From a virus (lineage: Duplodnaviria > Heunggongvirae > Uroviricota > Caudoviricetes), in the IMG/VR virus record IMGVR_UViG_2690315922_000019, positions 1 to 8,307 of that record: a stretch of 8,307 nucleotides of DNA. One strand, written 5' to 3'. Positions 6,560 through 6,938 of the stretch are shown here, in pieces (the first letter of the stretch is position 1; each line of letters begins with the position of its first letter). Made by a program: the position numbers and the translations under genes. The notes under the pieces are model-generated. The model searched no databases and was not told the DNA's origin. It worked only from the letters and a program-made list of their open reading frames with translations.

Positions 6560-6799
6560 ATGTTCAGAGTGATTTACCCTAACACCTGGTACGTCGACAA
6601 CCACGGCACTCCCTGCAAAATCCTGCGTTCCACTTACAACAAAGTTCACTACATCCGAAAAGGCAGAACATGTATCGCCAGCATGTTCCGCTTTAATCAT
6701 GACTTTGAACCTGTGAGTAAAGTGGAATCAGAGCGGATAGCCGAAGAGATCGATACAGCAGAACACATTAAGAAGTTACGTGCCATACGCAGGAAATAG
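6560..6799 (+). CDS. Hypothetical basic 79-aa protein
   Basis: ORF with an aagg ribosome-binding site about 7 nt upstream, on the same strand as and contiguous with the operon. No motif I can recognise; C-terminal K/R-rich tail. Confidence 0.5.
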   Translation: MFRVIYPNTWYVDNHGTPCKILRSTYNKVHYIRKGRTCIASMFRFNHDFEPVSKVESERIAEEIDTAEHIKKLRAIRRK

Positions 6800-6938
6800 A
6801 AAAATTGATAAATTCAATACTGCATTTCTCAGCATTAAATTTATCTCTATGACCAGTCAAGAGATGTACCTGCCATGAGCTTAATATCATGTCAGATATA
6901 TCGGTCACAAACTCCCTCAGCAGCTAAGAGGAGGACAA

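Follow-up and report, generated by a model that had tools for sequence, protein, structure and literature searches.

Lambdoid phages carry, between exo and xis, a region that encodes early, pL-expressed and non-essential small proteins, which have been proposed to influence transcription and the choice between lysis and lysogeny (PMC8614690). The review of this exo-xis region does not treat the DUF4222 gene (PMC8614690). The only DUF4222 protein to have been studied is RgdR (ECs1581), a basic protein of 99 residues from O-island 51 that stimulates LEE1 and type III secretion and inhibits motility (PMC3378721). RgdR binds DNA weakly and non-specifically, and its activity needs residue 20 of an RGD motif that was reported to be important for the activation of type III secretion (PMC3378721). 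The phage-inducible chromosomal islands (PICIs) of E. coli generally encode RgdR (PMC6092414). Here we analyze an 8,307-bp stretch of caudoviral DNA (IMG/VR record IMGVR_UViG_2690315922_000019, positions 1 to 8,307; hereafter the window), in which an open reading frame (ORF) for 79 amino acids (ORF79; 6560-6799, plus strand) and a non-coding spacer of 139 bp (6800-6938, plus strand) precede the excisionase gene xis. Both are real but ordinary: ORF79 belongs to the already catalogued DUF4222 family, and the spacer forms the leader of a xis-int cassette that is very common.

ORF79 starts with ATG and encodes an intact, small and basic protein (isoelectric point (pI) 9.79, 16 K+R vs 9 D+E), as a first-pass annotation of the window had read it. 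By direct reading of the sequence, a weak Shine-Dalgarno motif, AAGG (6550-6553, plus strand), lies 6 nt before the start codon and 16-19 nt past the stop codon (6532-6534) of the upstream ASCH-like gene. The same annotation had called the ORF an orphan with no recognizable motif, which homology searches overturned. ORF79 matched the Pfam family DUF4222 (PF13973) over profile positions 2-52 of 53 with 64.1 bits, against a gathering threshold of 27 (E 8.5e-18), and its residues 1-79 matched positions 1-79 of the 83 in the PHROG 285 profile (phrog_285; E 9.7e-34). On these profile matches, ORF79 is almost certainly a DUF4222 family member. The phage 21 gene CPT_21_36 (UMO75450.1, 'hypothetical protein, DUF4222') is the same gene, with 97.5% amino acid identity and equal length, and RefSeq labels the gene 'DUF4222 domain-containing protein' in E. 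coli genomes. The PADLOC defence models and NCBIfam gave no match. By tblastn, homologues were present in 124 phage records, at protein identities from 97.5% (phage 21) down to ~35% (Shiga toxin (Stx) phages, phiP27 and BP-4795). In a collection of 5.8 billion proteins, a single-sequence search returned 56 proteins and a profile search 730; when 1.84 billion cluster representatives were scanned exhaustively with a hidden Markov model (HMM), no more than 124 clusters reached E <= 1e-3, which marks the family as compact, and every named match came from enterobacteria. Among 5426 complete E. coli genomes, 2634 contained part of 6556-6945 and 1313 contained at least 80% of it. The gene is thus found in roughly a quarter to half of these genomes, which corrects its reading as an orphan or a moron.

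The ORF79 gene is under purifying selection. Its ratio of non-synonymous to synonymous substitution rates (dN/dS) was 0.12 vs phage 21, 0.40 vs the commonest allele, 0.41 vs the SfI-type allele and 0.23 vs HK639, and the ratios inside the phiP27 clade of DUF4222 were 0.14-0.27. All 89 copies examined were full length (80 IMG/VR loci, 8 phage records and the window). Among copies that are similar at the DNA level, amino acid divergence was concentrated in a few clustered sites (4, 6, 53-58 with SKVESE/NKADAD, and 65), which points to recombination between alleles and not to decay. Two substitutions, N14 and Y26, are private to the window copy; all 80 other close copies have H.

A confident AlphaFold2 model of ORF79 (42-sequence alignment, pLDDT 84.3, pTM 0.63) predicts an SH3/Tudor-like barrel of five strands (residues 10-51), in which a short helix separates strands four and five, and then a long, amphipathic C-terminal helix (54-78) with the basic tail HIKKLRAIRRK. 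An RgdR-like protein modelled by AlphaFold2 had the same type of architecture following a disordered N-terminus. A sequence search of the PDB with the family profile gave chance matches only (a retinoic-acid receptor, E 0.03), and Foldseek searches of the PDB (best E 0.025) and BFVD returned only generic small barrels and unnamed phage proteins. ECs_1581 of the Sakai genome matches DUF4222 with E 2.1e-23, and BLASTP aligns ORF79 to it at 29% identity over 45 residues of the domain (E 5e-4), with ~20% identity over the full alignment. The homology thus covers the conserved core of RgdR (ECs1581 residues 20-68); ORF79 has neither the R-G-D tripeptide that opens the barrel in the RgdR class nor its >77% homology over 99 residues and OI-51/PICI-type location. 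Within the family, variant P0070 (E. coli, 100 residues) has an internal 21-residue tandem duplication inside the barrel, and in the rare variants P0006, P0015 and P0034 a frameshift close to the 3' end carries the reading frame on into the spacer (…FLSIKFISMTSQEMYLP).

By its sequence context, ORF79 looks like an exo-xis gene: it shares the strand of exo and xis and sits between the two, in the pL operon, and no promoter of its own was found. Promoter and terminator scans found no sense-strand promoter or terminator in its flanks, and its GC content is 45.4%, compared to 45.7% for the window. Homology to different relatives breaks around it at 6556, 6687, 6707, 6789/6790, 6799 and 6895, which bears out the earlier view of this junction as a site of modular exchange. 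In many phages, homology to the window begins only at 6556. SfI-type prophages match 6556-6789 and diverge beyond, with a DUF4222 protein of 92 residues; in phage D2, homology runs from 6687 and includes a truncated Ea22::DUF4222 C-terminal fusion; in O157 Sakai Sp8, homology runs from 6799 onward, with no DUF4222 ORF. One and the same DUF4222 allele accompanies int21 in some cases and SfI-type int in others and, judged by these boundaries, the gene behaves as its own recombination unit. In lambda, orf55 and ea8.5 fill the DUF4222 slot and have no sequence relation to it; orf55, considered as a counterpart, is a positional equivalent only. The e14 gene ymfH, upstream of xisE, gave no Pfam family match. 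Because ORF79 is missing or truncated in lambda, D2 and Sakai Sp8, it is dispensable, like all exo-xis genes. Absence or disruption in relatives, one part of what the first-pass annotation named as refuting its reading, is thus found. The matching GC content, the lack of sense signals of its own and the conserved position before xis-int together indicate a resident, exchangeable and dispensable exo-xis gene rather than a moron, although module-like breakpoints do flank it.

The distribution of the spacer indicates that it belongs to the xis-int21 cassette, as a fixed leader, and not to ORF79. Its identity was 99% or higher in each of the 27 phage records that carry it, and distant-mode blastn found no diverged homologue. 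Across 29 distinct sequences, 11 of its 139 columns were variable vs 32 of the 240 in ORF79, and the spacer is retained whole in Sakai Sp8 although ORF79 is absent there. This constancy within the module speaks against the suggestion that the spacer is a remnant of an insertion junction. Its description as unusually AT-rich was half right: at 36.7% GC vs 45.7% in the window it is AT-rich, but not extreme, lying in the 7th percentile of 139-nt windows, and the operator and immunity intergenic regions reach 29.5%. The strong xis ribosome-binding site (RBS) was correctly seen. It is AAGAGGAGGA (6926-6935, plus strand), an annotated RBS in phage 21, with the Shine-Dalgarno sequence GAGGAGG (6928-6934) 4 nt ahead of the ATG at 6939. 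A hairpin that would sequester this Shine-Dalgarno sequence was considered and rejected, as its fold was no better than that of shuffled sequence (z 0.09).

A promoter for xis and int had also been proposed in the spacer, and sequence scans did not support it. A consensus scan found no plus-strand promoter in the spacer, and a relaxed scan found only the poor TACGCA-17-TAAATT. No CII box (TTGYN6TTGY) lies in 6800-7165; the window has two matches in all, at 278 and 4799, which is no more than chance predicts (expected 2.4). With no CII box near xis, a CII-dependent int promoter of the pI type is not indicated here. The match at 4799-4812 (plus strand), TTGCTGAGGTTTGC, lies inside exo and is flagged likewise in the phage 21 record. 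Nothing supports coding by the small ORFs of the spacer (32 residues, 6780-6878, plus; 32 residues, 6875-6973, plus; 46 residues, 6908-6768, minus); only rare frameshifted variants read the first, and the hairpin described below falls inside the last.

A terminator scan identified a terminator-like element on the minus strand of the spacer (6797-6845), with a 16-bp stem (arms 6845-6830 and 6822-6807), a 7-nt loop and then AAUUUUUCUA (6806-6797). As minus-strand RNA, the hairpin at 6807-6845 forms 16 uninterrupted pairs, two of them G-U (-17.4 kcal/mol, z -6.8). As plus-strand RNA it is weaker (-7.4 kcal/mol, z -3.0), because the two G-U pairs turn into A-C mismatches, and no U-run follows. By sequence, the minus-strand element has the stem-loop and U-run of an intrinsic terminator, with only 3 G-C pairs, and the strand asymmetry and U-run fit a minus-strand intrinsic terminator that faces antisense transcription via int and xis. 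In lysogens, int and the host icd gene point toward each other, as seen in Sakai, which makes an insulating role plausible. A second, imperfect inverted repeat (6863-6902, plus strand) has the core CATGA-N8-TCATG (-14.5 kcal/mol, z -3.5). One prophage (L053, 2780-4082) carries a 1.3-kb IS3-family element, IS629-like and with ends TGAACCGCCCCGGG, in the first hairpin at window ~6829-6838. Another (L046) has an IS10-like element with a 402-residue transposase in xis, at window ~6986-6996, and the homology of L023 also breaks at 6996.

The explanation that we favor, with slightly more confidence than doubt when taken as a whole, is that ORF79 encodes a DUF4222 regulatory cofactor at the end of the exo-xis block, and that the spacer is a phage-21 xis leader with an antisense terminator. 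ORF79 would be the last accessory gene of this block, transcribed with its neighbors in the pL-driven, N-antiterminated early-left operon. Its product would be neither an enzyme nor a structural protein but a small regulatory cofactor that the phage can do without. Made soon after infection or induction, it would tune the transcription of host genes, phage genes or both through protein-protein contacts and weak, non-specific DNA binding. This cofactor mechanism, which we propose because of the homology and shared architecture with RgdR, is tentative, and taken alone its chances fall somewhat short of even. The spacer, which is not linked to ORF79, is the constant 5' leader in front of phage-21 xis and int and supplies the xis RBS; its minus-strand hairpin and U-run would stop antisense transcription through int and xis before it reached the early-left genes. 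Read-through from the convergent host icd gene is a possible source of such transcription. Weighing against this insulating role, phage 21 already has an annotated terminator between icd' and int.

The position of DUF4222 genes could be explained in another way. Our synteny sample, drawn from IMG/VR only, comprised 240 loci from three DUF4222 clades and was redundant; a same-strand tyrosine integrase followed the DUF4222 stop codon in 231 of the 233 loci with enough downstream DNA, with its start mostly 200-960 bp past the stop and in a few cases up to 2.7 kb. The loci cover at least seven combinations of unrelated xis types (lambda-type Exc, HTH_17) and int types, and in every annotated relative compared (SfI, HK639, phiP27, P13374, a Klebsiella phage, JLK-2012 and BP-4795, whose recombination modules are mutually unrelated) at most one gene separates the DUF4222 gene from xis and int. 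Synteny this tight yields a concrete, testable hypothesis, namely that the DUF4222 protein is an accessory of site-specific recombination, a cofactor or modulator of Xis/Int (DNA bending, directionality) that is kept upstream of xis-int for this reason; ORF79 is also small and basic like Xis (pI 9.8 vs 9.6). We nevertheless consider it unlikely. ORF79 recombines independently of xis-int (boundaries 6556 and 6789; int21 or SfI-type int), the xis-int21 pair occurs without it in Sakai Sp8 and with the truncated fusion in D2, and lambda lacks the gene. Moreover, RgdR-type members adjoin primase, upstream of it, and not int, and the last place in a variable block before a fixed cassette would give the same synteny; the sampled loci are redundant besides.

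A bolder version of the cofactor explanation, which we offer as speculation with little expectation that it will hold, is that lambdoid DUF4222 proteins, so far unstudied, form one coherent class of effectors that phages and satellites make early. Through its Tudor/SH3-like barrel, each would bind a component of host transcription, perhaps RNA polymerase or an H-NS-family silencer, and couple prophage induction or excision to host gene expression, virulence and motility programs included, with an antisense terminator or small RNA (sRNA) in the spacer as a second control layer. Tudor domains of UvrD, Mfd and CarD dock on RNA polymerase. Such a class, if it exists, would explain both the pleiotropy of RgdR and the near-universal placement of DUF4222 genes before xis-int.

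The hairpin might instead mark the end of an RNA that the spacer itself encodes, a possibility that we find improbable. The best promoter-like match in 6740-7060, found in a relaxed scan, is TTGTGA-18-TGaTATTAA on the minus strand (6910-6881), which has an extended -10 TG and is overlapped by the 6863-6902 repeat. A minus-strand RNA of ~75-80 nt that starts near 6874 would end at the 6845-6807 hairpin and U-run, and could serve as a regulatory sRNA or act in antisense on the xis leader. The hairpin with its U-run is strong and lies ~30 nt downstream, the predicted RNA fold has a z of -4.05, and the region is at least 99% conserved. However, this conservation is uninformative because the copies are near-clonal, the -10 element is missing its normally conserved last T and did not pass the standard promoter scan, and the spacer has no Rfam match. 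The text-form supplements on Sakai Hfq-CLIP sRNAs likewise have no entry at these coordinates or for the neighboring genes.

Slightly more doubtful again is a reading of the AT-rich inverted repeat as a protein-binding site in DNA rather than an RNA element, for example a pair of H-NS nucleation sites that silence xis-int in the prophage. The region is AT-rich, both hairpin arms contain near-matches (9/10 and 8/10) to the H-NS nucleation motif TCGATAAATT, taken as cited in PMC7145609, and RgdR acts on the H-NS-silenced LEE1 promoter. These near-matches are not above chance: the single match with at most one mismatch is what chance predicts (expected 0.76), and matches with at most two mismatches are not enriched (15 vs 10.9). 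DNA binding would also leave unexplained why two imperfections of the repeat are G-U compatible on one strand only. Least probable of all is that ORF79 is a moron or recent insertion, with the spacer as its scar or as a promoter carrier for the moron or xis-int, as the first-pass annotation had it: breakpoints flank ORF79 nearly exactly across phages and prophages (left 6556; right 6789/6790 or 6799) and lambda has its unrelated orf55 and ea8.5 at the same place, but the gene shares the strand and GC content of the operon, has no sense-strand promoter or terminator around it, precedes at least seven xis/int modules and occupies the same position in many lambdoid lineages at 35-97% protein identity, which indicates long residence, and the spacer belongs to the xis module and has no CII box.

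The window as a whole is the early-left arm of a lambdoid prophage, oriented along pL transcription. In window order, cII-like and cro-like genes on the minus strand come before cI (662-1396), followed by an N-like ORF (1666-2085, plus) and the cIII thermometer (3167-3225, plus), a full-length match to Rfam Lambda_thermo (88.5 bits, E 4e-21). The arginine-rich motif of the N-like ORF, GNAKTRRHERRRKLAIERD, is one that we take to be of the P22 N type and not of the phage 21 type; if so, the window is presumably a mosaic of a non-21 immunity and N region and a phage-21 xis-int cassette. Next come bet (3833-4618), exo (4615-5295) and the small exo-xis genes, of which orf60a/63/61-like genes and an orf73-like DksA/TraR gene are present upstream of ORF79. 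The latter (6029-6250, plus) encodes a DksA/TraR zinc finger of 73 residues, the 'orf73' type of exo-xis gene (Pfam E 5e-9; phrog_54), and SfI and the Klebsiella phage likewise have a DksA/TraR gene, immediately ahead of their DUF4222 gene. The ASCH-like gene that follows (6247-6534, plus; 95 residues) belongs to phrog_625 and has a sub-threshold ASCH match (E 0.035). Downstream of ORF79, assigned to the DUF4222/RgdR family on Pfam, PHROG and phage 21 homology, and of the leader, xis (6939-7175, plus) encodes a phage-21-type excisionase (Pfam Exc E 4.7e-6; phrog_629 E 5e-36) that matches the xis of M61865, and int (7165-8307, plus), which overlaps the end of xis, encodes a tyrosine integrase of the phage-21 or icd-site type; int of this type adjoins icd in O157 Sakai Sp8. 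Between 6400 and 7100, the window is 96.9% identical to phage 21 (M61865, OL657228) and 97.6% to phages ev017 and PhiR57_1, and its gene order matches the annotation of the phage 21 record.

Several related records are annotated oddly in this region. In M61865.1, an 'icd' pseudogene at 537-700 (minus) covers the end of ORF79 and part of the spacer (window 6747-6910), a stop-rich span. The real icd' of that record is at 2214-2378 (minus), downstream of int and 96% identical to Icd residues 362-416, and it appears that the 'icd' coordinates of this 2910-bp record were numbered from the wrong end. In the Stx2 phage P13374 (HE664024), the DUF4222 gene (1801-2052, plus) is unannotated, and its place is taken by an 'ORF03' on the opposite strand. 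In phiP27, 158 bp (2044-2201) separate the DUF4222 gene from xis; this 'spacer', unrelated to the phage-21 spacer, aligns with an annotated ORF of 44 residues in JLK-2012 and BP-4795 (2047-2181), and by this alignment phiP27 probably has an unannotated small gene there. The Klebsiella phage ST101-KPC2phi6.1 has an unannotated, excisionase-like HTH_17 ORF (2053-2388, plus; Pfam E 1.2e-8) between the DUF4222 gene and int, so that its order is also DUF4222, xis, int. In Sakai Sp8 (39720-39859), homology starts exactly at window 6799, and the 'replication protein' ECs_1611 starts at 39823, inside the spacer hairpin and on the opposite strand; this hints at a junction left by rearrangement and makes the annotated start codon questionable.

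The value of these findings is modest. The kinship with RgdR, the synteny and the hairpin leave current understanding unchanged unless experiments show a function. They do tie a common lambdoid pre-xis gene explicitly to a regulator of colonization factors in enterohemorrhagic E. coli, so that many ordinary prophages carry distant RgdR relatives, and they place a strand-asymmetric, terminator-like hairpin in the xis leader of a widespread icd-integrating cassette.

ORF79 and RgdR share a Pfam family and a predicted architecture of beta-barrel, linker and basic C-terminal helix, and both are small, basic (pI 9.8 and 10.1, respectively) and prophage-borne. They differ in length (79 vs 99 residues) through a disordered N-terminal extension of 15 residues in RgdR, and in the 42-sequence alignment the RGD of RgdR aligns to P7-N8-T9 in ORF79 and to R-G-Q in the clade of Stx phages and phiP27. 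Their settings differ as well: RgdR lies in O-island 51, a PICI-type or P4-like satellite island of E. coli O157:H7, upstream of primase (Sp7), whereas ORF79 lies in a lambdoid exo-xis region before xis-int and shares the genomic compartment and expression logic of the exo-xis genes (PMC8614690). The closest system is phage 21 itself, where CPT_21_36 has the same neighbors, the ASCH-like gene upstream and the 139-bp leader, xis and int downstream, and from which the window differs in its immunity and N region. In lambda and P13374, too, a hairpin and T-run occupy the short interval that separates xis from the final exo-xis gene; that of P13374 (2054-2071, AACCGCCTTCGGGCGGTT followed by TTTTCTT), between the DUF4222 gene and exc, is a GC-rich sense terminator like the one before xis in lambda. 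These lambda and P13374 terminators are GC-rich, face the sense direction and would by our reasoning be overridden by N, whereas the AT-rich element of the phage-21 type is structured to work from the opposite strand.
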